A stretch of 64,000 bases of DNA from Candidatus Latescibacterota bacterium (GCA_965205975.1 OZ242195.1:4480001-4544000); one strand, 5' to 3'. Positions 27,711-48,449 are shown, numbered from the stretch's first letter. Notes: generated from the letters alone by a model not told the origin. Made by a program: numbers and translations.

Positions 27711-27926
27711 GGAGGGTCCTTTCAAGAGATCATGCAATCCAAAAATCAAACACTATCATGCATAAAAAGACAACTTCTGCCAAATAAAATTAAGGCTACT
27801 AACCTTTATAAAAAAGGCAGTCCAGGTCGCGTGATGATCCGTGCGAACAAGTCTGCCTTATTTACCAACGTCTGAGATTATTCCTCAGAACCTAGTTCCT
27901 CCAGTAATCTGGTTGGGGTGCATCAC

Positions 27927-28801: not shown

Positions 28802-31147
28802 TTATTGTTCCATACTTCTTTCTATGGCCCTTTGGTGTCTGTCTGAAAGAGATTCTTCCTCTCGCTTTGTTACGCGTTCATTGATTTCATTTTTGTTTAA
28901 AATAAAAAGGGCTTCTTGAGAGCTTGTTTGCTGGCTTATCAAATCGTGAACCTCAACTGCAAGCTGATATAGACCCGGTTTTAATTTTTTTGTATCCAAT
29001 TCAATATATATCGGTTCTGTGGTGCTGTTTCCATTATGGTCAGAACTAATCGAGATCTCTGGCTTTTGGTCGGTAACCAATTTGTCCATAAAAGATGATA
29101 TGCTGCCCAATAGACTGGCATTTTTTCTTTTATCTTCCCAGATCGTGTATTTAATGTGGTATTTCGTTTGACCAAATGCATCTTTTTGCAAATTGTAAAT
29201 TTCATAATAGACATTGACGGCCTGATTTCTGAGATAATTTCGCGTGGGCATGGGAATGACCCAAACATCGCCCTTTTGAAACTTGTATGATTGGGGTTCG
29301 GTGAAGATGTGATAGGCCATTTCAATATCGCTTATGCTCAGTGAATCGACAGCGTAATTCGGGATGTGAATTTGCTGTTGATAGAACCCCCATTTGCCAG
29401 AATTTTGATCCGCGAGATGAACGATGAGTCGATAATCCCCCGGTAGAGCTTTAAGAGACATCGCATCAATGGCGATACCACCTTGCGTACTTGACAGTGA
29501 TACAGTGTGTTGAGCGCTGTTGATGACTGTGCCTTCGTCATTCACAAGAGATGCCGTCCAGTTCACAAGTGCAAGAGTTGTTGAGGTATCATTTGGGGCA
29601 AAAATATCCTTTGGCAATAATCCGAGATAAATATTCTGATCTGTTTCGAGGTTCTTTCCCCGGAATGTCGCCAGGTCATAGTAAAAGTCCAAAATTTCAG
29701 TGCCGGGTATTCCATTATAAAAATCAGGCGTCTCTTTGGCATGGTGCCCAATAATAACTTGAGGATGGAAGTTTTGTGACGCTACTGCTAAAAGAGGACT
29801 CTTGGGAGGGAGCGGATAATCCCAACTGCCATTCATGAAGTGATCTGTAAATACAATTTCTATGCCTTTGCCAATACCGAGATAAATCCACGATTCCCAG
29901 GGAAATCTGGGCGAACCATCGGGATGGCGATCTATGGGATAAATGGGATCTGTCAGGGCACCTTTGCTCTGCTTGCGCTTCAAGGTGTTCCATTCGGGAA
30001 CTTGCTCTACGCGATTAGCCCTTTGCAAATTCAAAGCAAGTTCGTAAGCCAATCTTTCTTTTACAAATTCAACAGATAGGGGGGGAACTCTGCCTCCATA
30101 ACGCCCGCCAAATTTGTAATCCGGTTCACCAAACTTGATATACACCTCGCCGCGTCGATCCCAAGGGTGTTTACCATTAAAAAACTGGCGTGCATACCAT
30201 ACTCTTCTATAGTGTTCTACTTTTCTGATATTGGCCCCTGCACGCAATAAGGGGTCTCGCTTTTTCCAAAACTCATTTATGAACTGTCCTCGTTCTTCTT
30301 CTTTTAAGCTGCTAAAGGTATTTTGTTCTTCGGGCGACATCATCAATGTGATATTATCGTAATATCTGCGCTCATCTTCTGGTATTAGACGCAGGAATTT
30401 TTGAAATAAATAATCAGCCACCTTTACTTCACCCATGGCTGCGTAGGCTTGCGCCTGAAGCGGTAACCAATTGTCCTTGTCCGCGTGACTTGCCGGTAAT
30501 TGTTCAATAATCTCCAAAATCAGCTTGTATCGATAGTCCTTTGCGTAATTCAGTGCCATTTGATACAGAAAGTCCGCATCTTGTGGAACTAACTGAAGAT
30601 AGGACTTAAAATATGCCAGCATTTTCTTTTCGTTTTTTTCTTCGGCGTACCATTCGGCAAGTGCCATATGAGCAGGTGCGTATGATGAATCATCTTTGAC
30701 AATGCCTTTTAGAGTTGATACGGCATCGGTACTTTTGTCCTTCAGTTGCAGATGTGCAATATCCATTTTTACTGCCGTCATATTTGGATCTTTGGCAAGT
30801 GCGCGACGAAAATTATAAAAGGCTTTTTGATGTTTGCCTTTTTGATTGGCGTATGTCAAGCCCAATCCGCGATATGCCTGTGCCGATTTTTTGTAACGAA
30901 TGGCTTTTTTAAATGCTTCTTCAGCTTGCTTGAGGTCTTCTCGCTTCAACGCCAGCCAACCCAATTGCATATAGGCATCTCCGTCTTTGGGATTGTCCTG
31001 TAAATGGGATGTAAGAACCCCAATAGAGTCTGTTAATGCCTCACGATTCAATTGCGCGACATCAAGTGTCTGCCGATCCTCAAGCCCCCATAAGAGTTGC
31101 GGAAATAAGAAGATGCAAAGTATTAACCAATGGTTCTTGCCAATCAT
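28802..31147 (-). CDS. TPR + GWxTD-domain secreted protein (paralogue 5)
   Basis: Signal peptide; TPRs; FWKKRDP, EHYRRVWYA, PWDRRGEVYIKFGEPD, PWESWIY, FTD; C-terminal beta domains with VYYEIYNL.KD.FGQT.Y. Confidence 0.85.
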   Translation of the reverse strand: MIGKNHWLILCIFLFPQLLWGLEDRQTLDVAQLNREALTDSIGVLTSHLQDNPKDGDAYMQLGWLALKREDLKQAEEAFKKAIRYKKSAQAYRGLGLTYANQKGKHQKAFYNFRRALAKDPNMTAVKMDIAHLQLKDKSTDAVSTLKGIVKDDSSYAPAHMALAEWYAEEKNEKKMLAYFKSYLQLVPQDADFLYQMALNYAKDYRYKLILEIIEQLPASHADKDNWLPLQAQAYAAMGEVKVADYLFQKFLRLIPEDERRYYDNITLMMSPEEQNTFSSLKEEERGQFINEFWKKRDPLLRAGANIRKVEHYRRVWYARQFFNGKHPWDRRGEVYIKFGEPDYKFGGRYGGRVPPLSVEFVKERLAYELALNLQRANRVEQVPEWNTLKRKQSKGALTDPIYPIDRHPDGSPRFPWESWIYLGIGKGIEIVFTDHFMNGSWDYPLPPKSPLLAVASQNFHPQVIIGHHAKETPDFYNGIPGTEILDFYYDLATFRGKNLETDQNIYLGLLPKDIFAPNDTSTTLALVNWTASLVNDEGTVINSAQHTVSLSSTQGGIAIDAMSLKALPGDYRLIVHLADQNSGKWGFYQQQIHIPNYAVDSLSISDIEMAYHIFTEPQSYKFQKGDVWVIPMPTRNYLRNQAVNVYYEIYNLQKDAFGQTKYHIKYTIWEDKRKNASLLGSISSFMDKLVTDQKPEISISSDHNGNSTTEPIYIELDTKKLKPGLYQLAVEVHDLISQQTSSQEALFILNKNEINERVTKREEESLSDRHQRAIERSMEQ

Positions 31148-31214
31148 GCGATCCTCCTATTGAAAAATGCTGGACAATCAAATTCAAGTCAGTGTGAAAA
31201 TCAGAGAAGATCAT

Positions 31215-33512
31215 TTACTCTACAACGCGAAAATAAACGTATTTCTTATCCGTCTGCTCAGTCCGCTTGTCCTTCGCCAGCACCGTCAATTGGTAAATCC
31301 CTTCAGGCACCTGGTTCACATCGATCTGCAAATACGTGAAGTCATCTTCTCGATTGCCTTCGTAATCGGCTGTCACGGTGCGCGTCAAATCGCCATGGCG
31401 TGACCGCTCGATCTTCAAGCTCTCAGCAGCGATGTGGTGGACTTGACCGCCGCTCGTATAAACCTTTGTCTCTCCCAACATAAGGCTATCAGCAAACGCT
31501 CTGCTATTCACTTCGCTATCCTCTGACCGTCCGGGTTGCAACCCCTGAGCTTCTGCTGTTTGCCCAATCCGCAGATCAATCTTTGTTTTACCCATCGTCT
31601 CAATCAGATCTTGAGAGGCGAATAAGGTAGGAGACAGGGTATCCACTTCTGGTTTGCCGATGGTGTAAGAAATTTCATACTGCGTGCTGCCAAAAGCGTC
31701 GCGTTGGAGATCATACAGTTCCAGATAGATAAAGACCGATTCAGACGATGAAAATGTGCGAACTGGATTGGGGGTGATGTGCAGATCGTCACGGCTTTCT
31801 GGCAATGCTTTCTTCGCTTGAATATCACTGCCGACGAGCAGATCACTCAGATGAAAGGTCTCCTGGTCATACACAAAGGGTTTTTCATCGCGTGCCACCC
31901 CAATGAGGCCGGATGTTTGATCCAGTAATTCTACCGAAAAATGATAGCTGTCCTGGCGTAGGGATACCGTGCGCGAGATCAACAGGTGATCGTTGCGATG
32001 TTGTGCAGCGGCGTTTGAGGCTGGCTTCTGCGGCGGCAGAGCGAGGATCCTGGATTTGCGGTCGTTATACATATCATTCCACTGCTGATCAAAGAAGAAG
32101 ACACCATCCCAAAAACGCACCTTGCCCGTTCCAGGAATTTCTTTTAATCGGTCTTTTGGAATCATATAGCTGAGTTCGACTCGTATCCTGTTTTGTTCTT
32201 CAAAGGTGGCGATCTGATGGGGAAGGGTGTATTTTCGATTGAGATAGGGATCGACAAAGCGTTGGACTGTTTTTCGGAAGGTGTGATGCGAGGCTTCGTC
32301 GAAGTACCCCGGGTGAAAGCGGGCACCACCTTGTCCTACCTCAAAACCACCACAGAAGCTCCAGCGATCACTGCCGTTCCCGCAATATTCGATCTTGAAT
32401 GTTTCGTAGTACCAGGTTTCCATCATTCTGTGAAATGCCCTATACGGGTCCCCCCCTACAGAAAAGAAAAAGGTTTTTCTACTTCTATATCTTCCAAATT
32501 TGATATAGGTCTTCCCCATATCCGTCTGCCAGCCTTCAACATCATCTGAAAATCGCCTGAATCGCAAATTTGCGTAAGCCATACGGCCAAAGTGCGCCAT
32601 TTTTCTTTCGTTAAATTCTGACAAATAGAGCGGGTCCTGACGCTTCCAAAACATCTCGCGTTCCAAGAGCGCATCTATCGTCTGCGTCGTATCGCGGGAG
32701 GTATGATCTTCTTCGGACACGAGCAGGTCGATAGATTCGAGTAACTCGCGTTCTTCAACACGCATCAAGTCAAGGGCGCGTTGATAGTATTCATGCGAGT
32801 CATCGAATTCGCCAATCTGATAGGCGGCAAGCCCACAGAACAACAGCGCATTTTTGTCATCTGGATGTTGCGCGCGCAGGGCTTGCATCAAGGCATGGAA
32901 GGCATCCCAGTATTTATCTTCAAAGTAAATTATGCCCAAAAAATAATAAGGTTGCTGATTGGTCCCATCTAACCGAATGCTTTTTCGCAAGACCTGAATT
33001 GCCTCTCGTTTCGCTTCCTGGGCAAAACCCCTGAAATCCCGGGTTTGGGAATTATCTTTTGCTCTGAGAAACTCATACACCCAGAACATACCCAGCCTAT
33101 TGAGAACATCTGTATTGTTTGGATCCTTTTTGATCACGTTCTCAAATTGGTGGAATGCGCGGGATCGAAAGCCTTGATGCCACAAAATCTTTCCGCGTAT
33201 CAGCCGATACGCAATATTGTCGGGATCAATTGCGATTGCCTGCTGTATCATCCGCATTGCGCGCTGTCGGCCATTTACGCTGTGGTCCAGCAGATGCAGT
33301 TTGGCCAATTCATTATATGCAGGGGCATAATTTCTGTCTTTGGAAATAATCTCTTCGAAAGCTTTGATACTTTCCTTTTGACTCACCTGACCAATTTGTT
33401 CCAGTGCATTCTGAAACAGCGCGTCTATTGCGGTTTCCCCTCTGGACGTGCCAGGTCCCAAAAGGCAAGCCAACGCGATCAATCCCATGCGAATTGTAAA
33501 TCGCTTCTTCAT
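31215..33512 (-). CDS. TPR + GWxTD-domain secreted protein (paralogue 4, canonical GWxTD motif)
   Basis: Signal peptide; TPRs; FWKRQDP..LSEFNER, GWQTDMGKTYIKFG, ETWYY; C-terminal LSDLL...PNPVRTF...YLELYDL.RD.FG.T.Y. Confidence 0.88.
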   Translation of the reverse strand: MKKRFTIRMGLIALACLLGPGTSRGETAIDALFQNALEQIGQVSQKESIKAFEEIISKDRNYAPAYNELAKLHLLDHSVNGRQRAMRMIQQAIAIDPDNIAYRLIRGKILWHQGFRSRAFHQFENVIKKDPNNTDVLNRLGMFWVYEFLRAKDNSQTRDFRGFAQEAKREAIQVLRKSIRLDGTNQQPYYFLGIIYFEDKYWDAFHALMQALRAQHPDDKNALLFCGLAAYQIGEFDDSHEYYQRALDLMRVEERELLESIDLLVSEEDHTSRDTTQTIDALLEREMFWKRQDPLYLSEFNERKMAHFGRMAYANLRFRRFSDDVEGWQTDMGKTYIKFGRYRSRKTFFFSVGGDPYRAFHRMMETWYYETFKIEYCGNGSDRWSFCGGFEVGQGGARFHPGYFDEASHHTFRKTVQRFVDPYLNRKYTLPHQIATFEEQNRIRVELSYMIPKDRLKEIPGTGKVRFWDGVFFFDQQWNDMYNDRKSRILALPPQKPASNAAAQHRNDHLLISRTVSLRQDSYHFSVELLDQTSGLIGVARDEKPFVYDQETFHLSDLLVGSDIQAKKALPESRDDLHITPNPVRTFSSSESVFIYLELYDLQRDAFGSTQYEISYTIGKPEVDTLSPTLFASQDLIETMGKTKIDLRIGQTAEAQGLQPGRSEDSEVNSRAFADSLMLGETKVYTSGGQVHHIAAESLKIERSRHGDLTRTVTADYEGNREDDFTYLQIDVNQVPEGIYQLTVLAKDKRTEQTDKKYVYFRVVE

Positions 33513-33575
33513 AGCACATCCCTTTCTGTCTCAGTGGGGAAGGCGTGAACAAAAACAAAGGACGTGGTTTTTTGA

Positions 33576-36077
33576 TTAAGGTTCTGTCGGCACCTCGACA
33601 TTGAACACAGCCTGTCGATTCACACGTTGTCCCGAATTTAAATCATCAATGGCTACTTCCACCATCTTGAGACCAGGCTTCAGAGACTCTGTCTCCAATG
33701 CGAAAAAAACGGGTTCTTCTGTCGCATTCACAACCCGTTCATAGCTAATCGTAAACTCCGGTTCTTTCGCGCCAGCAAACAGCCGTCTCAATCCACCGAT
33801 TACCACACTTGCTACCGCCTTGCTGCCAGACACATTTGGGCGAATGGTATAGGTCACCCGATATTTCGCCTGACCAAACGCATCCAGCGTCAGGTTGTAC
33901 ACTTCGTAATACAGGTTTGCATCCTTATGGAGATTAAAACTCCTCGTAGGAGACGGTATCACTACAAGCTCACCTTTTGTAAACTTTGATGTCTGCGATG
34001 TCTGTGATGTATCAGATATATTATAGGCCATTTCGATTTCACTAACGGCCAGGGAATCTTCAAATGTCGGGATTTCCACCTGCTGGCGATACATACCCCA
34101 CCGGCCAGATACGCGATCTGCTAACTTTACACCCAGGGTATAATGACCAGGCGGAACATCCAGAGATGCCAATTCTACAAATAATCCTTTGTCTTGATTC
34201 TTTGCCACCTCACCCTCAAAGGCGAGCTCATCCGTTTTGCGATAGATCGAGTCTCCTTTGGCATCAGCCAGAACAATGGTTCTTTCTACCGCCATACGAA
34301 CAACCCGATCATCTACATTTTCTAAACGAATTTGCTCTGGCGGAATACCAAAATAAACTTCCAGTGAAGAGCGTTCATTTTCTCCGCGAAAACTCACCGT
34401 ATCATAATAAAATTCTAATAACTTAACACCTGGAGGAACATCAAAATACTCGGGCAACTCCGAAACTGTTTGCATGAGTTGATATGCAGGAGAATGCAAA
34501 GAGGCATGCAGCCCCAAAGACGCATGCCAAATCGTATTTGGTTGAAGCGGAAAATCCCAACTGCCACTCATATATCGATCGGTAAATACAAACTCCAATC
34601 CATCACCAATATTCAGATATACCCAGGATTCCCAGGGCACCCTGGTTGATCCATCAGGAGAACGTTCAATCGGAGCAACAGGCTCAATACCCCATGATAA
34701 TCCTGGCGGAATATTGAGATGCACTGTTCCAAAGGGCCCTTTAACTTCCCATAACCACTCGCTCAGAGGTACTTGATCTAAGCCAATTTTAATTTCCTCC
34801 CCAGCATTCTCATATTCAATCCGTTTCTGCGTGTCTAATTCACGTGGATCTTCTACAGAAACACTCGGTTCGTACATCGATGGCTTTCCAGGTGTCCACG
34901 ATTCACCAGGCAGCACCCGGGGCAATAAATATCGGCTCTGTTCTTGTGCTTTATATCCGAAAGTGCGACCAAATAATTCATCTATTTTACGCATCTTAAA
35001 ATTCTGAACTGCCACACTCGGTATCGAATTCTCACCTCCAGAACTGGACCTGTAATCAGGTTCTCCATACCGAATATATACCTCACCGCGTCTATCCCAC
35101 GGCTGATCCTTGCGACCAAAGAATGTACGCGCATACCACACACGGCGATAATGTTCCATACGTCGGGCATCTCCACCCAACATCAAAGCACCTTCGCGGC
35201 TTTCCCAAAAGCGGGTTAAAAAATTTTCGCGCTCATCCTCTGAGATGGATGCCAGTGCCTCCAGTTCAGCATCCGTAGCGATAAGCGATAGATCATTGTA
35301 ATAGGCGCGTTCATCCTCAGAAACACCTTGCAAATATTCTTCAAATAGGATCAAGCTGCGCTCTGCATCACCTCGAGAAGCATACCCTTGTGCTATCAAG
35401 GGCATCCATCTCATATCATTCGAAAAACGCTCTTTTGCTTCAGCACTTATCTTCAGGACTTCATCGTAGCGATGATTTTCAAGATGTGATAGTGTCAGGT
35501 GATAATATCCCATCGGATCATTTGGAAAGTGGGCGATGTATTGTTCGCAGTATTGTACTATCTCCCGCTTATAATTTAGGTGAGCTTGCTCGTACCATAA
35601 AATTAACTCGCGATATCCCGGGGCATAGTTTGGGTCCATTTCGATAACTCGGCGCAATGCTTTCTCTGCATCCTGATTGCCTAATTCTACGTGCAATAGC
35701 GCAATCTGCATTTGGGCTTCGAGATATGCAGGATCTACACCTAACGCTTGACGAAAAGCGACAAATGCCTTTTGATCCATTCTTTCCATCATTACATAAA
35801 CTTTTCCCAACCCGGTGTATGCCTCAGCCGACTTTGCATATCGCACGCCTTTGTCGAAAGCCTTCTTAGCATCCGTTAACCGCTCTTCACTTAGATATAC
35901 ATAACCGAGCTTTATCCAGGCATCACCGTCTTTGGGGTTATCCTGTAAATGGGATGTAAGAACCTCAATGGCGTCTGTTACCGACTCGGCATTCGATTGG
36001 TCATGCGCCTCAAGCCCCCACAAGAGTTGCGGGAGTAAGAAGACGCAAAGTATCAACCAATGGTTCTTGCCAGTCAT
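33576..36077 (-). CDS. TPR + GWxTD-domain secreted protein (paralogue 3)
   Basis: AGGAGG SD before ATG 36077 (MTGKNHW); TPRs; FWESRE, EHYRRVWYA, PWDRRGEVYIRYGEPD, PWESWVY, FTD. Confidence 0.85.
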   Translation of the reverse strand: MTGKNHWLILCVFLLPQLLWGLEAHDQSNAESVTDAIEVLTSHLQDNPKDGDAWIKLGYVYLSEERLTDAKKAFDKGVRYAKSAEAYTGLGKVYVMMERMDQKAFVAFRQALGVDPAYLEAQMQIALLHVELGNQDAEKALRRVIEMDPNYAPGYRELILWYEQAHLNYKREIVQYCEQYIAHFPNDPMGYYHLTLSHLENHRYDEVLKISAEAKERFSNDMRWMPLIAQGYASRGDAERSLILFEEYLQGVSEDERAYYNDLSLIATDAELEALASISEDERENFLTRFWESREGALMLGGDARRMEHYRRVWYARTFFGRKDQPWDRRGEVYIRYGEPDYRSSSGGENSIPSVAVQNFKMRKIDELFGRTFGYKAQEQSRYLLPRVLPGESWTPGKPSMYEPSVSVEDPRELDTQKRIEYENAGEEIKIGLDQVPLSEWLWEVKGPFGTVHLNIPPGLSWGIEPVAPIERSPDGSTRVPWESWVYLNIGDGLEFVFTDRYMSGSWDFPLQPNTIWHASLGLHASLHSPAYQLMQTVSELPEYFDVPPGVKLLEFYYDTVSFRGENERSSLEVYFGIPPEQIRLENVDDRVVRMAVERTIVLADAKGDSIYRKTDELAFEGEVAKNQDKGLFVELASLDVPPGHYTLGVKLADRVSGRWGMYRQQVEIPTFEDSLAVSEIEMAYNISDTSQTSQTSKFTKGELVVIPSPTRSFNLHKDANLYYEVYNLTLDAFGQAKYRVTYTIRPNVSGSKAVASVVIGGLRRLFAGAKEPEFTISYERVVNATEEPVFFALETESLKPGLKMVEVAIDDLNSGQRVNRQAVFNVEVPTEP

Positions 36078-36154
36078 GTCATCCTCCTGTTGACACACGT
36101 TTGAATAATCAAATTCCTTACCCTTTATACAGTTTTATACAGCAATTGTTTCGT

Positions 36155-38140: not shown

Positions 38141-38150
38141 TTTTTAATTT

Positions 38151-40493
38151 TTACCTCTTACCGATTCTGAATATCCCCTCCCGAATAGCGGTCTGGGCGC
38201 TGTTGAGGTCTTTTACTGTCATGATTAACCGATACCGCCCGGTTTCAATGCGGCCGATGTCCAGTTCGACGTAGTCGGCAGTCCAGAGGTCGCGCCCCGT
38301 TTGTTCGTATTGTACGGTGATCAGTTCCCCATCTCTGCGCCGTATTCTGGGTTGCGAGGCGAGTTCGCGTCCTTTTTCCGGTGCTACGGCAAAGGCGACC
38401 TGGTAGCGCGTTTGCCCGAAGGTGTCTCGCGTCAGGTTGTAAATTTCAAAATAAACGAAGATGGGAGTCCCGAGAAAAAAGGTGCGGGATGGCGATGTTG
38501 TGATGCGCCATTTGTTGCGCGCAGTCGTGGTGTCGCTTTGGCTTTCGTTTGAGGAAGCCGGTTGTTCAATATGCTGTGCGATCTGTAGATCGCTGAGCAT
38601 TAAACTGTCACCTGAAAAATCGTGCAGGCGCACTTTTTCCCGATAATTGCCCAGGCGATTGGTGTTGACGCGCCACATTTGTACGGCGAGGTCATATTCG
38701 CCGGGGGATAGGGGGATGTCGATGCGGTCTCTGGCGATCAGGCTTTTTCCCCGGAGTCCAGGGGGTATGGGGATGCCTACGTCTTCCCGCAGGCGTTTTG
38801 CTTCGCGGTTCTGGTCATCTACGAGGGCGATGCGCCGCTCGATTACGACTGTGGTATCCGGGTCTCTGGACATTGCCACTTCGTCGATTGGGAGGCCGAT
38901 GTTGATTTGCAGGTCTGTTTTGCCATTTTTTCCGCGGAATGACAGGGCCTCGTAGTAGAAGTTGAGGGGATCGAGGTCGGATGTGTCGTAGCGTTCGGGT
39001 TTTTTTGCCGCTGCTGCTGCGACTTGTGATGCAGGCGAGAAGTCGTTCACCATTTGGAGGAATCTGAGCGGCGACCCGCGAGAAGCGACGTCATAAACAT
39101 CTTCTCTGTCGATGGTCGGTACGGGGGCATAGCCGAAGATATTTGAGTGCATTTCGTCGGTGAATACGACTTCTATACCGTGGTTGATGTCGGGATAGAT
39201 CCACACTTCCCAGGGTACGCTGGAGAAATCGTTTCCGGCTGTTACGGGTTTCCATCCACGCAAGCCGAGGGTGCCGTCGTCTTCTTCGAGGGGGAGGTTG
39301 CTTTCGACATTTCGAAGCGCAATGCGGACGGGAAATACAGGTCCGGTGTAGGTTACAGTTGTGCCGGGACGGCCGTAGAGTTGAAATGCCAGTTTTTCCT
39401 GGATGCGCTGCACGGGGATCGGTACGCTGGCATTGGGCTCGCGCCAGGTTGAGCGGTAATCCGGCTCTCCGTATCGGATATAGACTTCGCCCCGCTGATC
39501 AAAGGGGTATTTGTAACGCCCAAAGAAGGTTCGCGCGTGCCAGACGCGGCGGTAGTGTTCTGCGCGTCTCTGGCTTCCTCCGGTTGTGCCAAAAGGGTCT
39601 TTGCGGATCCAGAAGGCGTTCAGAAAGGCGTCCATATCTTCGTCTGAGATTGTGCGGTAGGATGCGATTTCTCCCGGCGTGGCGATCAGGGAAATGTCTT
39701 CATAGATTGCTTTTTCCCGTTGAGATAGGGTGTCCAGATATTTTTGAAATACGGATAGGGCGTCTTCATAGCGCCGCGAGGCCAGAAGTACTTGCGCCAA
39801 TAGCGGGAGTCTTCGCGCATCGGTCATGCGCGAAGCGATCTCGGTTACGACGTTGTAGCGTTTTTCGGTCAAAAATTCAAGGGCAAATTCAAGTGCGGGC
39901 GTTTCGTCCTGTGCGCCATAGGACAGGTAGGTGTTGTAGTGGGATAGTGCCCGGGGGGTATCGCCTTTTTTGCGATAAAGACGCGCCAATAGCAGGTGGG
40001 CGGGACCATAGCGGGGATTGATTTGTAGTGCCTTGTTTGCCGCTTCTATTGCGTCTTTTTCTTTTCCGCGCGCCAGATGGGTTCTGCCGAGGACTTCGCG
40101 GCTTTCGGCGCGGTTGGAATCGGCCTGGATCGCCTGTTTGAGATGGGAGGTCGCGCGTTTGAGTTTGTTGCGATATTCCAGTAGAACGCGTCCCAATCCG
40201 AGGTGGGCATCTCCCTGATGCGGATCGTTTTTCAGTGATCGCTCAAATGCGGCTTCGGCGCTGTCGGGCAGTTGTAGCCGAAGATAGAGATGGCCGATAC
40301 GGGCGAGTAGCAGGGTGGAGTCCGCAGAACTGGGCACTGCTTCGTTTAATGTGTTGAGGGCTTCTCTGATCAGGGTTTTTCGCCCGAGAGCCTGAGCTTT
40401 GAGATAAACGGCATCCAGGTCTGTATCTTCGGCGGAGGCATGTCCGGCAATGCAGAAAAGTAGAAGGAAATGTACCCAATAGCGAATATTCAT
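38151..40493 (-). CDS. TPR + GWxTD-domain secreted protein (paralogue 2)
   Basis: Signal peptide (HASA-E); TPRs; FWIRKDP, EHYRRVWHA, PFDQRGEVYIRYGEPD, PWEVWIY, FTDE. Confidence 0.85.
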   Translation of the reverse strand: MNIRYWVHFLLLFCIAGHASAEDTDLDAVYLKAQALGRKTLIREALNTLNEAVPSSADSTLLLARIGHLYLRLQLPDSAEAAFERSLKNDPHQGDAHLGLGRVLLEYRNKLKRATSHLKQAIQADSNRAESREVLGRTHLARGKEKDAIEAANKALQINPRYGPAHLLLARLYRKKGDTPRALSHYNTYLSYGAQDETPALEFALEFLTEKRYNVVTEIASRMTDARRLPLLAQVLLASRRYEDALSVFQKYLDTLSQREKAIYEDISLIATPGEIASYRTISDEDMDAFLNAFWIRKDPFGTTGGSQRRAEHYRRVWHARTFFGRYKYPFDQRGEVYIRYGEPDYRSTWREPNASVPIPVQRIQEKLAFQLYGRPGTTVTYTGPVFPVRIALRNVESNLPLEEDDGTLGLRGWKPVTAGNDFSSVPWEVWIYPDINHGIEVVFTDEMHSNIFGYAPVPTIDREDVYDVASRGSPLRFLQMVNDFSPASQVAAAAAKKPERYDTSDLDPLNFYYEALSFRGKNGKTDLQINIGLPIDEVAMSRDPDTTVVIERRIALVDDQNREAKRLREDVGIPIPPGLRGKSLIARDRIDIPLSPGEYDLAVQMWRVNTNRLGNYREKVRLHDFSGDSLMLSDLQIAQHIEQPASSNESQSDTTTARNKWRITTSPSRTFFLGTPIFVYFEIYNLTRDTFGQTRYQVAFAVAPEKGRELASQPRIRRRDGELITVQYEQTGRDLWTADYVELDIGRIETGRYRLIMTVKDLNSAQTAIREGIFRIGKR

Positions 40494-40500
40494 AATTGTC

Positions 40501-43500
40501 TCACTGTACTACAAAAAGGGCATTTTTAGAGGCGGTCTGTTCGCTGTTCAAATCGGTTATCACGACTTCCAGCGCGTAGCGTCCCGGTTCGCGGTCGCCC
40601 AATTCCAATTCGGTATAGACGGTTTCCAGGTCCATTGTTCCGACCTGTTCATATCCCATTAACACTTTTTCTCGTTTGCCGCCAAGCGTTCTCACCATGC
40701 GAGATACGGCACCGCCCACGCCTTTGCCTTTTGGCGCGATTGTGTATTCCACCTGGTATTTTGTCTGACCAAATTCATCGCGTTTCAGATTGTAGATTTC
40801 GTAATACACGAAAATGTTTTGTCCCTTCGGATAGGTTCGCGTGGGCATGGGCACCACGTGTAACTCGCCTTTGCGGAATTTGTCCTGGGGTCCGCCTTCT
40901 GCAATGCGCCATGCGAGTTCCAGGTCGCTCACTTTCATCGAGCGGGTCTGATATTTTTCCAATTCGATAATCTGGCGATAACGCCCCTGCCGCCCGGACA
41001 GGCGGTCCTGTAGCTGTACTTCCAGCTTGTAATATCCCGGTGGGGCGTCCAGGCGCACGACATCGGGTACAAAGGCGCCCTGTATGCCGGTTTGATCGCC
41101 TTTATTGCGAAAGCGCACATCGCCGGTGCGCCGATATACGTCTCCGGTTTGTTCGTTCAAGAGGGATACGGTTCGCTCCACGACCAGTTCGGTAGTGTTG
41201 TTTTCGGCAAAATACCGCCCCAGTGTCCGCGGGATTCCCGTATAGACTTCCAGCGCGCTCACGTCATTTTGGAGGCTCTGAAAATCTGCGAGATCGTAAT
41301 AGAATTCCAGGGGGCGGGTGTTTTCTGGGGTTGCGTAATAATCCGGTGTTACCCGCGCGGCGAACTCGGTAACCCTGCGGGGATTGTACCGGTTGAGTAG
41401 AGCCAGTGTGCGGATGGGGATGTTGGGATCCAGGGGCGCGGGCGCGTAGTCGAAATTGCCGTTCATTGCTTCGTCGGTGAAGGTTATTTCGATGCCGCCG
41501 TTCACATCGGTATAGATCCAAGTCTCCCACCGAACCATTGAGGCGTCTTCCGGAACGGAGACCGCGTGGAAATCCGGCTGGAGATCAAAAAATCCACTTC
41601 CCATGTTTCCGGCGTTGACCACTGTATTTGCCAGCCGTTCAAAAGTGCTGATGTCTTCTCCGGTCTGGTCATCGCCTGTTGCCTGTGCCGAACGCACGGT
41701 GCGCTGTTCTTCGTCTCCTGACTCGAGTCCCTGTCGCTCCCGTTCCTGTGACTGTTCAATGGCCTGCTGCATGGATTCGTCCTCGATTTGCGCCCTGAGT
41801 GGGGTTGCGCCACTTAGTCTGGCTTGAAGTCCCCGCACGGGATATACCGGGCCAAAGTAGGTCTGTTGCGCGGCTTCGCCACCAAATAGCGTTTGTGCCA
41901 CGCGCTCTTTGACACGCTGCACGGAGAGGCTCTGATCCAGGTTCAGCATGTTGGAACGCGATCTGTAATCCGGTTCTCCGAATCGGATATAGACCTCGCC
42001 GCGCCGGTCAAAGGGCTTTTTTTTCTCTGAGAAATTGGTGAGGGCATACCATACCCGTCTGTAGTGCTCCAGTTTGCGTTCGTTGATCGATGTGATCAGG
42101 TTTGGGTCTTTCAGTGCCCAGAATTGTCGCAAATATGACGAACGCGCCGCGTCTGTGTCGAGGCTGTTGTATTCTTCCAGCTCTTCGACGGATGCGAGGA
42201 ATTGGATGTCTTCGTATAGTGCGCGGTGTTGCGGATTGAGGTGCGCCACATAGCGGGAAAAATAGGTCTGTGCCCAGTTCGGGCGTTTCTGTTCAAGACA
42301 TGCCTGCGCCAGGATGGGCAGGGATGTTATTTCTTCGGGGTACTCGCGGATGTGATCTTCCAGTAACTGCACGATGCGGTCGAAATTTTTGCTTCGCAAA
42401 TAGGCTCTTGAGAGCAGTTCTCTGCCTTCCGGGTCCCCGGGCGCGAGTGTTATATAGCGGGCATAGGCCATGGCCGCCTGTTCATAGTCTTCTTCCTGTT
42501 CTTCCCACCATTTGCCCAGCAGTTTGTAGGTCGGCGCGTAGGTTGGGTCCAGTGCAATGACGTGATCGAGGTCGCGTTTGGTGTCGTATTCTTTGAGCTT
42601 ATATCGCGCCTGCGCCATGTTGAAACGGGCATCGCGGTGGGTATTGTATAGCTGCGATAGCCGTTCATCTGGCGGCCACTGCAAGGCTCTTCTGAAATAG
42701 CGGATGGCGTTGTACATGCCTTTGGGGCGATTTTGAAAGACGAGTCCCAGTCCGTTGTACGCCTCGGATAGGCGGTGATTGAGGTCAATTGCTCGCTCAA
42801 AAGCGTCCCGCGCGCGGTCGTAATTCTCTACCTCTAAATAGGCATAGCCGAGGAGGCAATGGCCCAGTTCCATCTCGGGTGCGACATGGGTGAGTGCGGT
42901 TAGTATGGGCACGGCGAGGGTGTCGTTTTGCGATAGGAAGATTTTGCCTATTGTCAGGAGTGAATCTATCTGTGTTTGTCCAATGGGGCGGTCCTGCACG
43001 CGATAATTCTCGGTGTGTCGAACCAGTTCTACGAAGCGGCCGGGGTAAAAATAGCTTACGACAATGGCTTCACCTGTAGCGGCGTTGGGTCTGTAAAAAT
43101 AGCTGACGGGCCGGGTTTGGTCCCGATCTACGGGGGCGCGGAACAGGCGGGCGATGGTCCCGGGATCTGCCCGGGATTCCGCAATAGCCCATTTTTGAAG
43201 CGCGGACAGTTGGTCGGGCATTTCTCCGCGATGGTCGCGGTGGTATGCGGTTAATAGCCTGGCGATTGCGGTGAGGTGGTCGCGGCAAACCCAGCGCGAT
43301 CCATTTTTCCGAATTTCTTGCGCGGCGGTTTGAAAGGTTTGCACATAGTCCCGCATTGGTGATTCGGATAGACCGTTTTTAGCGGATTGTCTGGCCAAGG
43401 ATTCAAAATGGCGCGCCGCCTGTTTGTAATAATCAGCGGCTTGTTTGAAGTCCCAGCGCGAGAGGCTCAATTGCGCCAGGCGTGCAGCGTTGAAGCCCGA

Positions 43501-43995
43501 TGTCAGGTTGGGCAGGGCGTTTTTGCCAATAGCAGGGGCGGTCGGTTTTAATCCTTTTATGGCTTTTTCAGTGGTCCAGATAATGGATTCCATGTCTGGA
43601 TCATCTATTATGAGGATATCGCGTCCCGATGACGTCAGTTCCCAGTATCGGGATGGGGCAAGAGAGATGGTGTGTCCCCTGTGCAAGATGTCGCCGGGTG
43701 CGGGCAATAATAGGGGGATGGATTGGAAGACGATGGTTCCGGTTTCTGTTCTGCCCAGTTGACCTGGTCGCCCGGGAAAAATGCCGAGACACTGTTCCCG
43801 TTCCGCACCATTGGTCCACAGTTCCGTCAGTGCGATTCCGCCCATTTCTCGAGAATAGGTCCACACCTGACTGGTCGCTCCGGTGCGGAGGATTAGATCC
43901 TCCTGAGCGTCTGCTGTGCTCCAGAGCACAACAGCTATGAGTAATGCGTATCTGATTGGTAAAGTGAACACGGTATGTCTCCTTAAAGGATACAC
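40501..43995 (-). CDS. TPR + GWxTD-domain secreted protein (paralogue 1) with extra N-terminal domains
   Basis: Signal peptide (ADA-Q); about 340-aa N-terminal extension; TPRs; FWALKDPNLITSINER, EHYRRVWYA, PFDRRGEVYIRFGEPD, WETWIY, FTDE. Confidence 0.85.
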   Translation of the reverse strand: MYPLRRHTVFTLPIRYALLIAVVLWSTADAQEDLILRTGATSQVWTYSREMGGIALTELWTNGAEREQCLGIFPGRPGQLGRTETGTIVFQSIPLLLPAPGDILHRGHTISLAPSRYWELTSSGRDILIIDDPDMESIIWTTEKAIKGLKPTAPAIGKNALPNLTSGFNAARLAQLSLSRWDFKQAADYYKQAARHFESLARQSAKNGLSESPMRDYVQTFQTAAQEIRKNGSRWVCRDHLTAIARLLTAYHRDHRGEMPDQLSALQKWAIAESRADPGTIARLFRAPVDRDQTRPVSYFYRPNAATGEAIVVSYFYPGRFVELVRHTENYRVQDRPIGQTQIDSLLTIGKIFLSQNDTLAVPILTALTHVAPEMELGHCLLGYAYLEVENYDRARDAFERAIDLNHRLSEAYNGLGLVFQNRPKGMYNAIRYFRRALQWPPDERLSQLYNTHRDARFNMAQARYKLKEYDTKRDLDHVIALDPTYAPTYKLLGKWWEEQEEDYEQAAMAYARYITLAPGDPEGRELLSRAYLRSKNFDRIVQLLEDHIREYPEEITSLPILAQACLEQKRPNWAQTYFSRYVAHLNPQHRALYEDIQFLASVEELEEYNSLDTDAARSSYLRQFWALKDPNLITSINERKLEHYRRVWYALTNFSEKKKPFDRRGEVYIRFGEPDYRSRSNMLNLDQSLSVQRVKERVAQTLFGGEAAQQTYFGPVYPVRGLQARLSGATPLRAQIEDESMQQAIEQSQERERQGLESGDEEQRTVRSAQATGDDQTGEDISTFERLANTVVNAGNMGSGFFDLQPDFHAVSVPEDASMVRWETWIYTDVNGGIEITFTDEAMNGNFDYAPAPLDPNIPIRTLALLNRYNPRRVTEFAARVTPDYYATPENTRPLEFYYDLADFQSLQNDVSALEVYTGIPRTLGRYFAENNTTELVVERTVSLLNEQTGDVYRRTGDVRFRNKGDQTGIQGAFVPDVVRLDAPPGYYKLEVQLQDRLSGRQGRYRQIIELEKYQTRSMKVSDLELAWRIAEGGPQDKFRKGELHVVPMPTRTYPKGQNIFVYYEIYNLKRDEFGQTKYQVEYTIAPKGKGVGGAVSRMVRTLGGKREKVLMGYEQVGTMDLETVYTELELGDREPGRYALEVVITDLNSEQTASKNALFVVQ

Positions 43996-43998
43996 CGT

Positions 43999-45417
43999 TC
44001 AATGCAACTTTCGAAAAGCAGTCCAGCATACGCGTAGTAGCAAAAAGCCGTGCCGAAAGCGGTGGATCTGCGTGGTTCCGTACACCCGATCCCGATAGCG
44101 CACGGGTACTTCTACGATTTTGCGAACGAGTTTGGACGCGCCGAGGAGGAGATCAAAATCTCCAAAGGGATCGAAGTCACATACGTCTCGACGCGCTCTG
44201 GCCAATTTTTTGTAGTCCGAGGCAAACAGGACTTTGGTACCGCACAGGGTATCCAGGATGCGTTGTCCCAAAAGGCAGCTCAATATCCAGCCGAAAAATC
44301 GGTTGCCCAGAAGGTTCAGGAATCGCATGGCCTGTTGTTCCATGGGATATACGAGGCGAGATCCCACGGCGAGTTCGGCGCGGCCCGATACGAGAGCGTC
44401 GAAGAATTTGGGCAGTTCCTCTGGCGCGACGGTCAGATCGCCGTCCAGGATCATCAATATATCACCTCTGGCTGCGTCAAATCCCTGCCGCACAGCGTCA
44501 CCTTTGCCTGTTCCGGTTTGTCGGATCAGGCGGATGTCTGTTCCCCTATATACCGCCATGCATCGCTCGACTTCTTCGGCGGTGTCGTCTGTTGAATGTC
44601 CCACGACAAAGATTAGTTCTGTATGCGCTCCCATCGCAGGTGTGCGCGCAATTGCCGCTTCCACTGTGCCGCACTCGTTTTTGCAGGGTATTATTACCGA
44701 GCAAGTGACTGCGGAGGCTTCTCGTGCGGGAAAGACGGGACGGGCGACGAGTGTCTGTATGAGACACAGGCGTCTCAGTCCCGGCACTCTTGCCAGAAGG
44801 CGATTGGCAAGCCATGCGAGAAGGGGGACGCGGCGGGGCAAAAACAGACGGGTTTCCCGTCGAATTTCTTCAAAGCCCGATAGGTAAAGTAAATTCTGAA
44901 TGTCCCGGTGTGTCAACCAGTTTTGCACGGGTTCGGGCATTTTTAAGCGGAATATTTCTCCGGTTTTTAGCACGGGTTTCCACAGGGGATTGTAGTGCGT
45001 AATCAGGACGCGGGAGCCGGGTAGTACGACTTTCCACAGTTCGCTGAATACGCGCTGGATGTCTGGCAGAAAACCCAGCAGGTCCGATAGGATGATCCAT
45101 TCGAATCGCTCCCCTTCGGGCAAATTCTCGGCGCGTCCCACGCGAAATATTAGGTCGGGGTATTTTTTGCGTGCGCGTTTTATCATTGCTTCGCTGAAGT
45201 CAATGCCGAGTCCCCGTCTCGGTTTCAGGCCCGCGAGCAGGTCGCCGGTGCCGCATCCTATGACCAGGACAGACGATCCTTCGGGCACAGCGCAGCGGCA
45301 AAATCGCAAGACTTCTTCGTGATAGGTGCGGTTGCGCCTGCGCCAACGGTCCCGGTTTTCGGCAGCTTTGTCGAAAAATTTCCGTATGGCGCCGCTATCG
45401 GGGAAGGGGTTTTTCAT
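43999..45417 (-). CDS. Class I SAM methyltransferase fused to a DPM1-like GT2 glycosyltransferase
   Basis: Likely start ATG 45417. VLVIGCGTG and GIDFS (MTase); SVIIPCKNE, STDDT, GKGDAV, ILDGD, GSR, DTLCGTK, EVPVRY.DR.YG (polyprenol-phosphate glycosyltransferase-like GT2). Confidence 0.88.
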   Translation of the reverse strand: MKNPFPDSGAIRKFFDKAAENRDRWRRRNRTYHEEVLRFCRCAVPEGSSVLVIGCGTGDLLAGLKPRRGLGIDFSEAMIKRARKKYPDLIFRVGRAENLPEGERFEWIILSDLLGFLPDIQRVFSELWKVVLPGSRVLITHYNPLWKPVLKTGEIFRLKMPEPVQNWLTHRDIQNLLYLSGFEEIRRETRLFLPRRVPLLAWLANRLLARVPGLRRLCLIQTLVARPVFPAREASAVTCSVIIPCKNECGTVEAAIARTPAMGAHTELIFVVGHSTDDTAEEVERCMAVYRGTDIRLIRQTGTGKGDAVRQGFDAARGDILMILDGDLTVAPEELPKFFDALVSGRAELAVGSRLVYPMEQQAMRFLNLLGNRFFGWILSCLLGQRILDTLCGTKVLFASDYKKLARARRDVCDFDPFGDFDLLLGASKLVRKIVEVPVRYRDRVYGTTQIHRFRHGFLLLRVCWTAFRKLH

Positions 45418-47266
45418 GTGAGGTCTCGTGATTTTTTTTGAGTATTTCCAATTCACGGCGTGCCAGTTGCGCGACTTGCGGGTCTCCCCGCCAGAGTTCT
45501 ATAAAGCGCGTGTACGCCTGTATGGCTGCGGTTTTTTCGCCGTTGTCACGATGGGCTTTTCCCAGGTTAAAATACGCTTCAGCCCAATTTGGACGCAATG
45601 CTATGGCACGGGCATAAGCGGTAGTGGCATGTGCGGGATGGCCCAATTTTTCGCGGACCACGCCCAGGTTGTAGAAAATTTCTGCGTTGGTCGGGTCGAG
45701 TATAGCTGCTCGTTCAAAGGCCGAATGCGCGTCGGTTATTTGTCCGGCCTGCATTGCTGCGAGTCCTTTGTTCATGTAGGCTTCGATGTAATCCGGTTCT
45801 ATTTCTACTGCTTTTTGATACGCGGCTGTCGCGTTCTTAAAACGGGCTGTTGCGGCATAGAGATTTCCTAGGTTGTTATAGGTGAGGGCACTTTTTTGCA
45901 CTGATAGGGCATTTCTATAAGCTGTTTCGGCTTCGGACATCCTGCCGCGTTCGGATAGAGCGTCGCCCAGAGCGTGTTGCATTTTCGCGCTTTTGGGATA
46001 TGCTGTTACTGCGCTCTGGTAAAGTGTTAAGTCGTCTCGCCATTCGGTGTTTCGGACAATTGTTCGGGCGCTATATCCCACAAGGATCAGGGCGGCGAGG
46101 GCAATGGTGCCCGTTTTTTGATGTTTTTCAAGGTGTTCAAATCCCAGACCGCACAGCGTGAATAAACCGAGAACTGGAATGTATAGAAATCGTTCCTGAA
46201 AAATGGCGTTGATCAGGACGAGTGTTTGCGATACGACTGAATAGGGTACAAAGAATAATGATAGAGCAAAAAATACGCAGGGCCAGCGCCAGCGAAAAGC
46301 ACCCACCCATAATAGAAGACTTGCGATGCCGAGGATTATGCCCGCTATTGCTTCGGGCGCGAGTATAGAAGTGATGACGGGGATGGCGTTATAAGAGTAA
46401 TCTACGGAAAGTTTGAAGGGTAACAAAATGAGAATGCAATATTTCCAGAGTAGTCCGGCGGCTGTCAAGAGTCTGTGGTCGAGGGGCTGGTCTATGAGTG
46501 GGTTGTTGAGGGCGAGTATATTTTCGGCTGAGAATCCCAGGCCCGCAGCGACTTTTCGCATGGTTAGGTAGATGGCAAAAATCCCGATGAATCCGGCCCA
46601 GCGCGCGCCGCGTTGCCACAGGAGATTGCGTATTCCTTTTGGGCGGGATAGGGCAAAGGTCAGATCGACGGCAATGACCAGTCCCAGTACGGCTATCGCG
46701 CTTTCTTTGGAGAGCAAGGCGAGAAAGAATCCCGCGAGGGCCAGTCCGTAATATTTTTCCGCGCTCCGGTTATGCCAGTGGATGTACAGGAGCAAGGCTG
46801 TTAGAGAAAACAGGCCAGCCAATAAATCTGCACGCCCAAATGTGATGCCGGCGACGACTTCGGCATGGATGGGATGTACGGCAAAGAGCAATCCGGCCAG
46901 GATCGCGCCCCGTTTTAGTCCCAGACTCAGGCAGAGGAGATAGGCGAGGAGGCTGTTAACCACGTGCAGGATTACGTTGGTGAGGTGAAATCGGAAGGGC
47001 CATATCCCTCCCAGGCCATCCAGCATAAAAGACAGGACCGTCAGGGGGCGATATTGCCCGTTGACGTTGGCTTCACCCTCGTATCCGCCCCAGTAATGCG
47101 TGGTTAAAATGCCCCATACATCGGCTTCGCGAAGCAATCGGTTGCGTTCGATCAGAAAGTGATCGTCATAGACCAATCCGTTGCCCAGGCTGTTTGCGAA
47201 TACCAGAAAGGCCGCCAATCCCACCGCGATGAGAGGATAGGTTTTTCCGCGTTGTTTTATAGGCAT
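45395..47266 (-). CDS. TMTC-like GT-C glycosyltransferase (protein O-mannosyltransferase homologue) with C-terminal TPRs
   Basis: Likely start ATG 47266. VYDD, HYWG, YRPLTVLSF, FHLTNVILH, LFAVHPIHAEVVAGI..GRADLL, LLSKES, NNPL, P..LSVDYS, ERFLYIP, RN.EW; then several TPRs. Confidence 0.85.
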   Translation of the reverse strand: MPIKQRGKTYPLIAVGLAAFLVFANSLGNGLVYDDHFLIERNRLLREADVWGILTTHYWGGYEGEANVNGQYRPLTVLSFMLDGLGGIWPFRFHLTNVILHVVNSLLAYLLCLSLGLKRGAILAGLLFAVHPIHAEVVAGITFGRADLLAGLFSLTALLLYIHWHNRSAEKYYGLALAGFFLALLSKESAIAVLGLVIAVDLTFALSRPKGIRNLLWQRGARWAGFIGIFAIYLTMRKVAAGLGFSAENILALNNPLIDQPLDHRLLTAAGLLWKYCILILLPFKLSVDYSYNAIPVITSILAPEAIAGIILGIASLLLWVGAFRWRWPCVFFALSLFFVPYSVVSQTLVLINAIFQERFLYIPVLGLFTLCGLGFEHLEKHQKTGTIALAALILVGYSARTIVRNTEWRDDLTLYQSAVTAYPKSAKMQHALGDALSERGRMSEAETAYRNALSVQKSALTYNNLGNLYAATARFKNATAAYQKAVEIEPDYIEAYMNKGLAAMQAGQITDAHSAFERAAILDPTNAEIFYNLGVVREKLGHPAHATTAYARAIALRPNWAEAYFNLGKAHRDNGEKTAAIQAYTRFIELWRGDPQVAQLARRELEILKKNHETSHEKPLPR

Positions 47267-47276
47267 TAAAAGCAAC

Positions 47277-47351: not shown

Positions 47352-47359
47352 TTGCACAG

Positions 47360-47402
47360 AATACAAAGGGCGATTGCCAGGGTGCAACCCCGGCAGTCGC
47401 CC
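47360..47402 (-). terminator. Intrinsic terminator or stem-loop after the PorV-like gene
   Basis: Minus strand GGGCGACTGCCGGGGT-tgc-ACCCTGGCAATCGCCC followed by TTTGTATT. Confidence 0.65.
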
Positions 47403-47450: not shown

Positions 47451-48449
47451 TTAGAACGTGCCGCCTATTGATATGCGCAGCGGCGAGTCAAATAGCGCTA
47501 CGCCGTCAATATCCTTCAGCAGCGAATAGGACACATCTATGGCGAATGTGCGCCCACCCACTGTCTGTTTGACGCCAGCGCCAAGGGCAAAGGATTCGAG
47601 GTCGTAATTCCACTTATAGCCCGCGCGCACAGCTACCATATTCTGGACCCAGAGTTCGGCTCCAAAGTGATAGCGTTGCTCGAAATCTACGGGGAATACG
47701 CTCTCGGCCGCCAGTGTCAAATAGGTCGGATCGCCTTTTTCGCCATAGACTTCGGCTGCCAGGCCCATGTTGTAGGTCAGGGGCATCAGGTAGGAGAATG
47801 CCTCTTCCCGAGCTTTCTGGTCTGGGCCGAAGTTCTTGAACGACATGGCTACGCGCAGGCTTCTAAACCCGGTGTAGAAATGACTGCCCAGGTCTATGGT
47901 AAATGTGCTGGTTTTTTGCGTGTAGAGTTTTTCCTGCACATAGTTGGCTTTGGCGCTGAACGAGAATTTGTCTGTGAATTTTATGGCGTAGAGCAGGCCT
48001 ACCGCCATGTAGTTCACATCGACAAACTGACCCGTTCCACTCGGCTGGAAGATGGTGGTTTCTTCGATGGGTTCGACCTGCTGTGTAATCAGGCTGATCC
48101 CCAGGACTTCACCCCGAGACGAGTGGGTATTGAAGACAGCTGCCGCCGAATACAGTTCTGTGCCTGCCAGCCATTTGGTGTAGTTGGCCTGATAGGCGAA
48201 CTTTTCCACATGGGTCAGCCCAGCGCCGTTCCAGAAGATGGCGTTGATATCATCGGCAATTGCCGTGTATGAATCACCCATCCCCACGGCACGCGCACCC
48301 TGTCCGATTTTCAAAAATTGCATGCCTGCGATATTGACTTTCTTGACCCCTTCGATCGCGGTTACACCTTCATATTCAAGCCCCAGAGCGGGACTGGCGA
48401 TCAGCAGCAGGCTCAGGAACGCTGTAAGTATGAGATTTTTTCGTTTCAC
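47451..48449 (-). CDS. PorV/PorQ-family outer-membrane beta-barrel (T9SS shuttle-like)
   Basis: Signal peptide; QFLKIGQGARAVGMGD.YTAIADD..AIFWN.AGL signature; beta-strands; terminal F. Confidence 0.85.
   Translation of the reverse strand: MKRKNLILTAFLSLLLIASPALGLEYEGVTAIEGVKKVNIAGMQFLKIGQGARAVGMGDSYTAIADDINAIFWNGAGLTHVEKFAYQANYTKWLAGTELYSAAAVFNTHSSRGEVLGISLITQQVEPIEETTIFQPSGTGQFVDVNYMAVGLLYAIKFTDKFSFSAKANYVQEKLYTQKTSTFTIDLGSHFYTGFRSLRVAMSFKNFGPDQKAREEAFSYLMPLTYNMGLAAEVYGEKGDPTYLTLAAESVFPVDFEQRYHFGAELWVQNMVAVRAGYKWNYDLESFALGAGVKQTVGGRTFAIDVSYSLLKDIDGVALFDSPLRISIGGTF

Follow-up and report, generated by a model that had tools for sequence, protein, structure and literature searches.

The 64,000-nt stretch of the Candidatus Latescibacterota bacterium genome analysed in this work (GCA_965205975.1, OZ242195.1:4480001-4544000; hereafter the window) contains, at positions 28802-47266, eight open reading frames (ORFs) that the original prediction had joined into one envelope system: a TMTC-like glycosyltransferase of the GT-C type, a fusion of a methyltransferase and a family 2 glycosyltransferase (MTase-GT2), five GWxTD proteins with tetratricopeptide repeats (TPRs), here GWxTD-1 to GWxTD-5, and a DUF6785 membrane protein. 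In our reading the stretch is very probably a composite of separately inherited pieces. On balance, if by little, we favour a composite locus whose core, the TMTC-like gene and GWxTD-1, would encode minor periplasmic accessories of an upstream cassette built around a TonB-dependent receptor and a PorV-family barrel (TonB/PorV), glycosylating a product of the locus; taken by itself, the accessory-glycosylation part of this reading appears rather probable. The gene inventory of the original prediction stood in full: the eight ORFs, all on the minus strand, are co-oriented and close-packed at the positions and spacings proposed, and the profiles of DUF1736, TIGR04514 and DUF6785 all score over their cut-offs, with the GT2 domain (PF00535) at 82.9 bits.

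We compared 168 genomes of Latescibacterota, in which cassette-type TMTC genes (rows chosen by score, position and tree) were found in 36 genomes of three families, every one of them with a GWxTD-1-type gene within 5 kb (36/36). The predicted TMTC-GT2-GWxTD linkage was thereby upheld for GWxTD-1 and failed for MTase-GT2, which adjoins TMTC in 17/36 genomes of a single genus (G000, and 16 of the 20 others examined in that genus). More tightly tied to TMTC than GT2 is the upstream cassette, overlooked by the original prediction: its 810-aa exported protein (U810) lies within 3 kb of TMTC in 33/36 genomes, the others being contig ends (G012, G013) and a relocation (G018), and of the 35 genomes with U810 orthologues TMTC follows them in 33. 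The order barrel, receptor, U810, PorV, TMTC, GWxTD-1 is kept in the three families, and in a quick tree the cassette TMTCs form a single clade that tracks taxonomy (26 of 47 rows; Shimodaira-Hasegawa-like approximate likelihood ratio test, SH-aLRT, 99). TMTC, MTase-GT2 and GWxTD-1 have been relocated as a group by 0.2 Mb in G018, and orthologues of U810, TMTC, MTase-GT2 and GWxTD-1 are jointly missing from G006, G015, G019 and G020. A metagenome scan added four loci, three with U810-PorV-TMTC (one of them also with GWxTD-1) and one too short. Since the 36 genomes are kin, they represent one inherited arrangement rather than 36 events.

The cassette is separated from TMTC by a hairpin (Table 1) whose GGCGAC...GTCGCC type recurs 3' of PorV in 30/30 cassettes of the three families, with a T-rich tail in most; judged by sequence, it is a likely terminator, or else a 3' stabiliser. 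Purine-rich Shine-Dalgarno-like sites precede all four cassette genes, and none is evident 5' of TMTC, GT2, GWxTD-1 or GWxTD-2. The RNA evidence consists of contigs from seven RNA runs of five studies, whose depth cannot rank genes; the runs containing window sequence are labelled sponge metatranscriptome. A deep contig over PorV stops at 47389-47391 in 3/7 runs (from two studies, one contig having a loose end of 28 nt) and at 47506 in another, and is fragmented in one; in a further run, of unrecorded kind, coverage is even on both sides of the hairpin. RNA-library contigs span the TMTC/GT2 and GWxTD-2/DUF6785 junctions; among the contigs listed, none spans GT2/GWxTD-1 or GWxTD-1/GWxTD-2. Taken together, the contigs hint, if weakly, at a main transcript of the cassette and some read-through past the hairpin. 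A sigma-70 scan gave no excess of sites (19 vs 22 expected). The spacer itself is variable at 47267-47352, the strains in the RNA runs lacking approximately 85 nt, and short pieces resembling this segment elsewhere in the runs suggest a small repeat; the hairpin has substitutions on both arms among the L005-L165 cassettes.

Table 1. Features of the window, in order of transcription (positions counted from the first nucleotide of the window).
Feature	Position	Strand	Evidence and remarks
Small beta-barrel of the outer membrane; opens the cassette	54255..54968	-	PF13505 E 4e-4, short of cut-off; relatives in three families have it in the same place
TonB-dependent receptor (CarboxypepD_reg + plug)	50975..54226	-	PF13715, PF07715 over cut-off
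U810, 810-aa exported protein	48468..50900	-	Whole protein without family match; probable type IX secretion-type C-terminal tail
PorV/PorQ-family barrel	47451..48449	-	NF033709 162.8 bits, cut-off 90
GC-rich hairpin + T-rich tail, PorV-TMTC spacer	47368..47402	-	z -5.8 for the 111-nt window spacer
TMTC-like GT-C glycosyltransferase	45395..47266	-	ATG 47266; ~11 transmembrane helices, DUF1736, C-terminal TPRs
MTase-GT2 (methyltransferase + DPM1/AglJ-like GT2 fusion)	43999..45417	-	Methyltransf + Glycos_transf_2
GWxTD-1	40501..43995	-	3-nt gap to MTase-GT2; TIGR04514
GWxTD-2	38151..40493	-	7-nt gap to GWxTD-1; TIGR04514
DUF6785/DUF6784 membrane protein	36155..38140	-	10-nt gap to GWxTD-2
GWxTD-3	33576..36077	-	Gap 77 nt from ATG 36077, 56 nt from GTG 36098; TIGR04514
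GWxTD-4	31215..33512	-	63-nt gap to GWxTD-3; TIGR04514
GWxTD-5	28802..31147	-	67-nt gap to GWxTD-4; TIGR04514
M28 peptidase-like + MacB/FtsX permease fusion	23184..27749	-	Family matches; outside the range of the original prediction

The features of the TMTC-like protein are 11 hydrophobic segments, a match to PF08409 (DUF1736) of 29.7 bits (cut-off 27; 20 of 29 aligned relatives also match) and a C-terminal TPR array at about residues 427-596. Most predicted catalytic motifs are kept, as expected of the glycosyltransferase originally proposed: compared with Table 4 of PMC7801869, it retains D34-D35 (M1), R145-A-D147 (M3) and E358-R359-F-L-Y362 (M7), and these three motifs are retained across the 26-row clade where covered; YRP, K187-E188 and D289 are also present. 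The enzyme is filed as TMTC-like, not as a member of TMTC1-4, which have a Dol-P-Man donor and a cadherin acceptor, and is probably active. A profile of its GT-C part found no match among solved sequences; the same paper names ArnT as the closest solved homologue of TMTCs and notes full-length prokaryotic homologues without a function (PMC7801869). The genome total is one full TMTC-like gene, one weak paralogue and one MTase-GT2. The paralogue (L060:8839-16048, G000), with neither TPRs nor the ERxxY motif, stands 5' of a 1903-aa C25 peptidase with a FlgD-like tail. Tandem arrays of another TMTC-like clade occur in L019 (G017), L020 (G011) and L100, the first two adjoining repeat proteins of 1572 and 2532 aa and the third surrounding an MTase-GT2.

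MTase-GT2 overlaps the TMTC-like gene by 23 nt from its ATG (45417) or 62 nt from a GTG (45456), and lies between TMTC and GWxTD-1 in all 17 genomes that have it there; it was not found in 13/13 genomes of genus g6. It is a genus-level insertion. Within the genus it is better conserved (82%) than TMTC (68-74%) or GWxTD-1 (74-75%), and so is not decaying. The protein has a DxD motif (D325-G-D327) and no transmembrane helix; its closest solved relative is the dolichol-phosphate-mannose synthase (DPMS) of P. furiosus (5mlz, E 5e-13), and its best curated model is AglJ (102.6 bits, cut-off 325). The first acidic residue of the DDxS motif has a nucleotide-binding role; where the VDDDS motif of DPMS has this Asp, MTase-GT2 has V272 in 19/19 same-genus rows, a position that is D or E in 43 of 44 outside relatives. 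By its domains the protein is plausibly a lipid-sugar donor synthase. A stand-alone DPM1-like GT2 (at 1501142-1501834 of G000:C1 in the genome of the window) was found in 39/41 genomes, including 13/13 of g6, so that a donor synthase is available without MTase-GT2. Outside the genus, the nearest relatives in G021, G023 and G036 are located in NDP-sugar clusters, and 13 of 47 loci of MTase-GT2 relatives have a GT-C neighbour (8 PMT_2, 3 YfhO, which we take to be GT-C, and 2 TMTC), a raw count with no background rate, made over ORFs with at least five crude transmembrane segments; these outside-locus counts omit L062-L075 (same genus) and L123-L125 (weak partial matches). In two other phyla the fetched surroundings of 15/39 TMTC loci include a GT2, in one case a GT2-methyltransferase fusion (again with no background rate); these counts favour the TMTC-GT2 pairing of the original prediction. 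The 39 loci, one per genome, come from 300 listed matches and favour high scores and long contigs.

All five GWxTD proteins of the window match TIGR04514 (49.7-53.3 bits, cut-off 28), the Pfam model PF20094 reaching 19.8 bits on the GWxTD-2 core, under its cut-off of 26.9. They share 24-38% identity; the motif is literally GWxTD in GWxTD-4 alone and reads P[FW]D[RQ]RG in the remaining four. GWxTD-1 comprises a signal peptide, a 310-aa N-terminal domain, TPRs, the GWxTD core and two beta-sandwich domains. Its whole model (predicted local distance difference test, pLDDT, 81.5; predicted template modelling score, pTM, 0.54) yielded TPR and weak beta-sandwich matches in fold searches, the modelled tandem sandwiches weakly matching transglutaminase barrels and RbmA (E 7e-7 to 1e-5). 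The isolated core is modelled confidently (pLDDT 93, pTM 0.90); Foldseek returned nothing for it at E<=0.001, and its best Z among 48,161 representatives was 4.8; as modelled, it is unmatched by solved folds in these searches, which does not by itself prove a new fold. A guess that the core is BamE-like was not borne out by the fold searches. The N-terminal domain (window 42976-43905) is confidently modelled and without a family match, and no family of the phylum beyond three was found to have it. GWxTD-2 follows GWxTD-1 in 13/16 same-genus genomes, and in G025, G033 and G081 its best relative is placed upstream of the barrel; it is loosely tied to the cassette. In genus g6 (L007-L011, L054-L057) a PTPS_related membrane protein and a membrane-TPR protein stand a few genes beyond GWxTD-1.

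The remaining genes do not support a single eight-gene system. The DUF6785 protein scores over cut-off for DUF6785 (306.1 bits) and DUF6784 (68.8 bits) and has no Pfam match to OPT (PF03169), which 11% of one neighbouring cluster (score 0.92) carry; OPT transport is thus no more than a lead. Its orthologue lies within 4 kb of an FtsX/M28 gene in 5/5 genomes tested, TMTC-less G006 included; spacings of 44-58 nt were recorded in G007, G009, G011, G017 and G018, and in G011 and G018 it is 0.7-1.2 Mb away from TMTC; DUF6785 is part of a separate DUF6785-FtsX/M28 module, whose function is likely transport. The slot between DUF6785 and FtsX/M28 in 11 kin (G013, a contig end, left out) holds no GWxTD gene in four, one in six, two in one and three in none; GWxTD-3, -4 and -5 are variable passengers in it. 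GWxTD-5 is truncated in two kin, and the three passengers have a lower GC content (0.43-0.48 vs 0.52-0.55). The first 97 nt of GWxTD-3 (36008-36104) and GWxTD-5 (31078-31174) are 86% identical, the proteins 38%, which suggests an exchange of 5' ends. Also variable in the slot of kin are a 121-aa ORF without a family and an XRE-type helix-turn-helix gene (27927-28671), which could, as a guess, be a toxin-antitoxin pair. With 24 GWxTD matches in 19 loci and 35 DUF6785 matches, besides 15 PorV genes over cut-off and SprA, neighbours of the GWxTD and DUF6785 kinds are commonplace in this genome. A co-oriented DUF6785 lies within 5 kb of 6/19 GWxTD loci vs 0.62 expected, and PorV loci are near GWxTD in 4/15 (0.44 expected) and near DUF6785 in 6/15 (0.69 expected); the expectations derive from uniform shuffles, which overstate significance. 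Most GWxTD genes are scattered independently of TMTC and GT2, an outcome that the original prediction had itself named as refuting; an example is G035 (L126-L128, G035:C4:10000-70000), with 14 TPR-GWxTD genes on one strand within 60 kb and neither TMTC nor receptor.

The mechanism that we envisage has the TonB/PorV cassette as the main transcript, mostly ending at the hairpin, with TMTC and GWxTD-1 produced at a lower level. The transferase would move one sugar from a polyprenol-phosphate carrier to Ser/Thr of an exported locus protein (U810, the receptor or GWxTD-1), the donor being supplied in most relatives by the stand-alone DPM1-like GT2 and, in this genus, perhaps by the inserted MTase-GT2. 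Its TPRs may grip the acceptor while unfolded, by analogy with TMEM260, whose TPR domain recruits an extended acceptor peptide (10.64898/2026.03.17.711096). GWxTD-1 would assist the outer-membrane complex as a soluble protein of the periplasm, as would the products of the GWxTD genes after TMTC-free cassettes, and TMTC and GWxTD-1 would likely help cassette products to mature. This reading draws on the 36/36 pairing, the 33/36 cassette linkage, the single TMTC clade and the joint move and absence of the genes, and also on the stand-alone GT2, the 30/30 hairpins, the Shine-Dalgarno pattern, the DUF6785-FtsX/M28 linkage and the barrel-receptor-U810-PorV-GWxTD cassettes free of TMTC (L024, L129, L133, L134 and L143; L135 and L145 over the fetched stretch).

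Several observations weigh against it. G029 retains the cassette in the absence of TMTC, and in G018 TMTC has departed from it; being kept in kin, the TMTC-GWxTD-1 pair may be one old event preserved by inertia. Conserved Ser/Thr residues show no selective loss in the cassette proteins of TMTC-less G029, the single true TMTC-negative genome: 25/28 are retained in GWxTD-1 (controls 25/30 and 25/29) and 29/41 in U810 (controls 31-40 of 43-46). In the genome of the window, GWxTD loci are not significantly near TonB receptors (2/19 vs 0.61 expected, p 0.13) and 18/19 have no TMTC. The deep PorV contig continues 0.8-1 kb into TMTC in 2/7 RNA runs. Finally, M2, M4 and M5 of the transferase deviate from the animal consensus: in place of M2 SHKSYRP, with its mannose contacts, the window has NGQYRP and the other two families TG[QH]YRP, M4 KE(T/Q)xxT reads KESAIA (K and E kept, T/Q and T replaced) and M5 DW reads DY (D kept, W replaced). 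A PF08409 search of five TMTC-less genomes gave no match and missed its control too, so that it says nothing either way.

Other searches for an acceptor were likewise negative. The two GWxTD-1 sandwich domains have only two columns specific to TMTC-linked proteins, neither of them Ser/Thr. The Bacteroidota motif D-[ST]-[AILMVT] was not enriched in exported proteins (0.90 vs 0.89, with a crude signal-peptide call). A giant cadherin-domain protein encoded at 8945-19768 was rejected as acceptor: five kin lack it in the syntenic slot, a close relative occurs in 1/40 genomes, and weaker relatives were found in five TMTC-less genomes too. This protein has 3607 aa, a GC content of 0.63 and cadherin, Calx-beta, fn3 and SWM repeats, and it has a duplicate at about 1.59 Mb of G000:C1, with 92% identity in the searched part.

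Among the alternatives, we consider it improbable that the cassette is a surface-display unit with TMTC-type O-glycosylation, in which a TPR-GWxTD protein of unsolved fold is the acceptor, or an adaptor presenting the proteins of the cassette, and one genus has swapped its donor sugar through MTase-GT2. Equally doubtful is a TMTC dedicated to GWxTD-1-type proteins, probably to their C-terminal beta-sandwich strands, in cis and in trans, the cassette being merely its address. The complete adjacency, tighter than that of TMTC and PorV, the joint move in G018, the position of both genes beyond the hairpin and the weak tandem beta-sandwich matches, animal TMTCs acting on cadherin domains, would all fit; however, for 46/82 GWxTD-1-type genes no TMTC lies within 5 kb, G029 has four such genes and no TMTC found, duplicates of GWxTD-1 have left TMTC behind, and no Ser/Thr footprint was seen.

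Slightly less credible still is the reading in which TMTC, either ArnT-like or a general glycosyltransferase of the envelope, landed once behind the terminator, its neighbours being inherited synteny with no functional tie. The GWxTD profile indeed found nothing at 17 other Latescibacterota TMTC loci (both L209 control genes were found) or at the 39 loci of the two other phyla (~9 kb each side), which also have no PorV or receptor resembling those of the window; ArnT is the closest solved TMTC homologue according to PMC7801869; and one MTase-GT2 relative lies inside a five-TMTC array in G171, a genome without any GWxTD match. Against it, the gene order outlasted approximately 50% protein divergence in three families while the flanks changed, and genes moved and vanished jointly. 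Far less likely, and already largely refuted by the neighbourhood comparison that the original prediction had called for, is one glycosylation/assembly pathway of MTase-GT2, TMTC, the five GWxTD proteins and DUF6785. Tight spacing, the RNA contigs across two junctions, the excess of DUF6785 near GWxTD loci and the GT-C neighbours of MTase-GT2 relatives speak for it, but all eight genes occur together in G000 only, 0/11 kin have GWxTD-3, -4 and -5, the GT2 is not beside TMTC in 19/36 genomes, none of the 47 outside MTase-GT2 loci has a GWxTD match, and DUF6785 is remote from TMTC in two genomes, G011 and G018, while G006 has DUF6785 but no TMTC.

With one receptor cassette and one GWxTD gene as constant neighbours of a single-copy TMTC, the list of candidate acceptors shrinks to about five proteins, and the GWxTD core, modelled with confidence, offers a target for structural work. 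As a limit, the TMTC-GWxTD-1 pair does not extend beyond three related families of uncultured bacteria and may be one old event. A literature search, with supplements and most subscription papers outside it, found no mention of GWxTD, DUF6785, DUF6784, TIGR04514, PF20094 or PF20581; among the matches listed there was no substrate for a bacterial TMTC-like enzyme, and among the PorV papers listed no mention of Latescibacterota. The accessible part of PMC12993501 does not mention TonB or type IX.

Compared with dolichol-phosphate-mannose synthases and related enzymes (5mlz, AglJ, ArnC), MTase-GT2 shares the GT2 fold, the DxD motif, the lack of a transmembrane helix and relatives often beside GT-C genes, and differs in its N-terminal methyltransferase and the Val for Asp of VDDDS. 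SusC/SusD loci serve utilisation in Bacteroidota, and PorV/PorQ-cargo pairs serve the type IX secretion system. The window resembles the former in a TonB receptor followed by an exported partner, but the receptor scores 91 bits against TIGR04056, under the cut-off of 368, and U810 has no SusD family match. With the latter it shares the PorV-family barrel (11/15 PorV genes of the genome have a TonB receptor within 8 kb) and SprA; the U810 tail gives weak CHU_C and FlgD matches and the tails of 8/10 relatives match TIGR04183 at E 0.001-0.004, none of these reaching its cut-off. Further differences are the GWxTD and TMTC genes next in line and a setting outside Bacteroidota. Animal TMTC1-4 (GT-C/PMT clan) differ from the window protein in the motifs that read NGQYRP, KESAIA and DY here, and no cadherin protein co-distributes with it, but they have in common about 11 transmembrane helices, DUF1736, C-terminal TPRs and the DD, RxD, KE, ERxxY and YRP motifs. 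Human TMEM260 belongs to a separate family, of which this genome has its own gene elsewhere (PF11028); nevertheless, it combines (10.64898/2026.03.17.711096) a GT-C core with a TPR module recruiting an extended beta-strand acceptor, and offers a model for the TPR arm of the TMTC-like enzyme.

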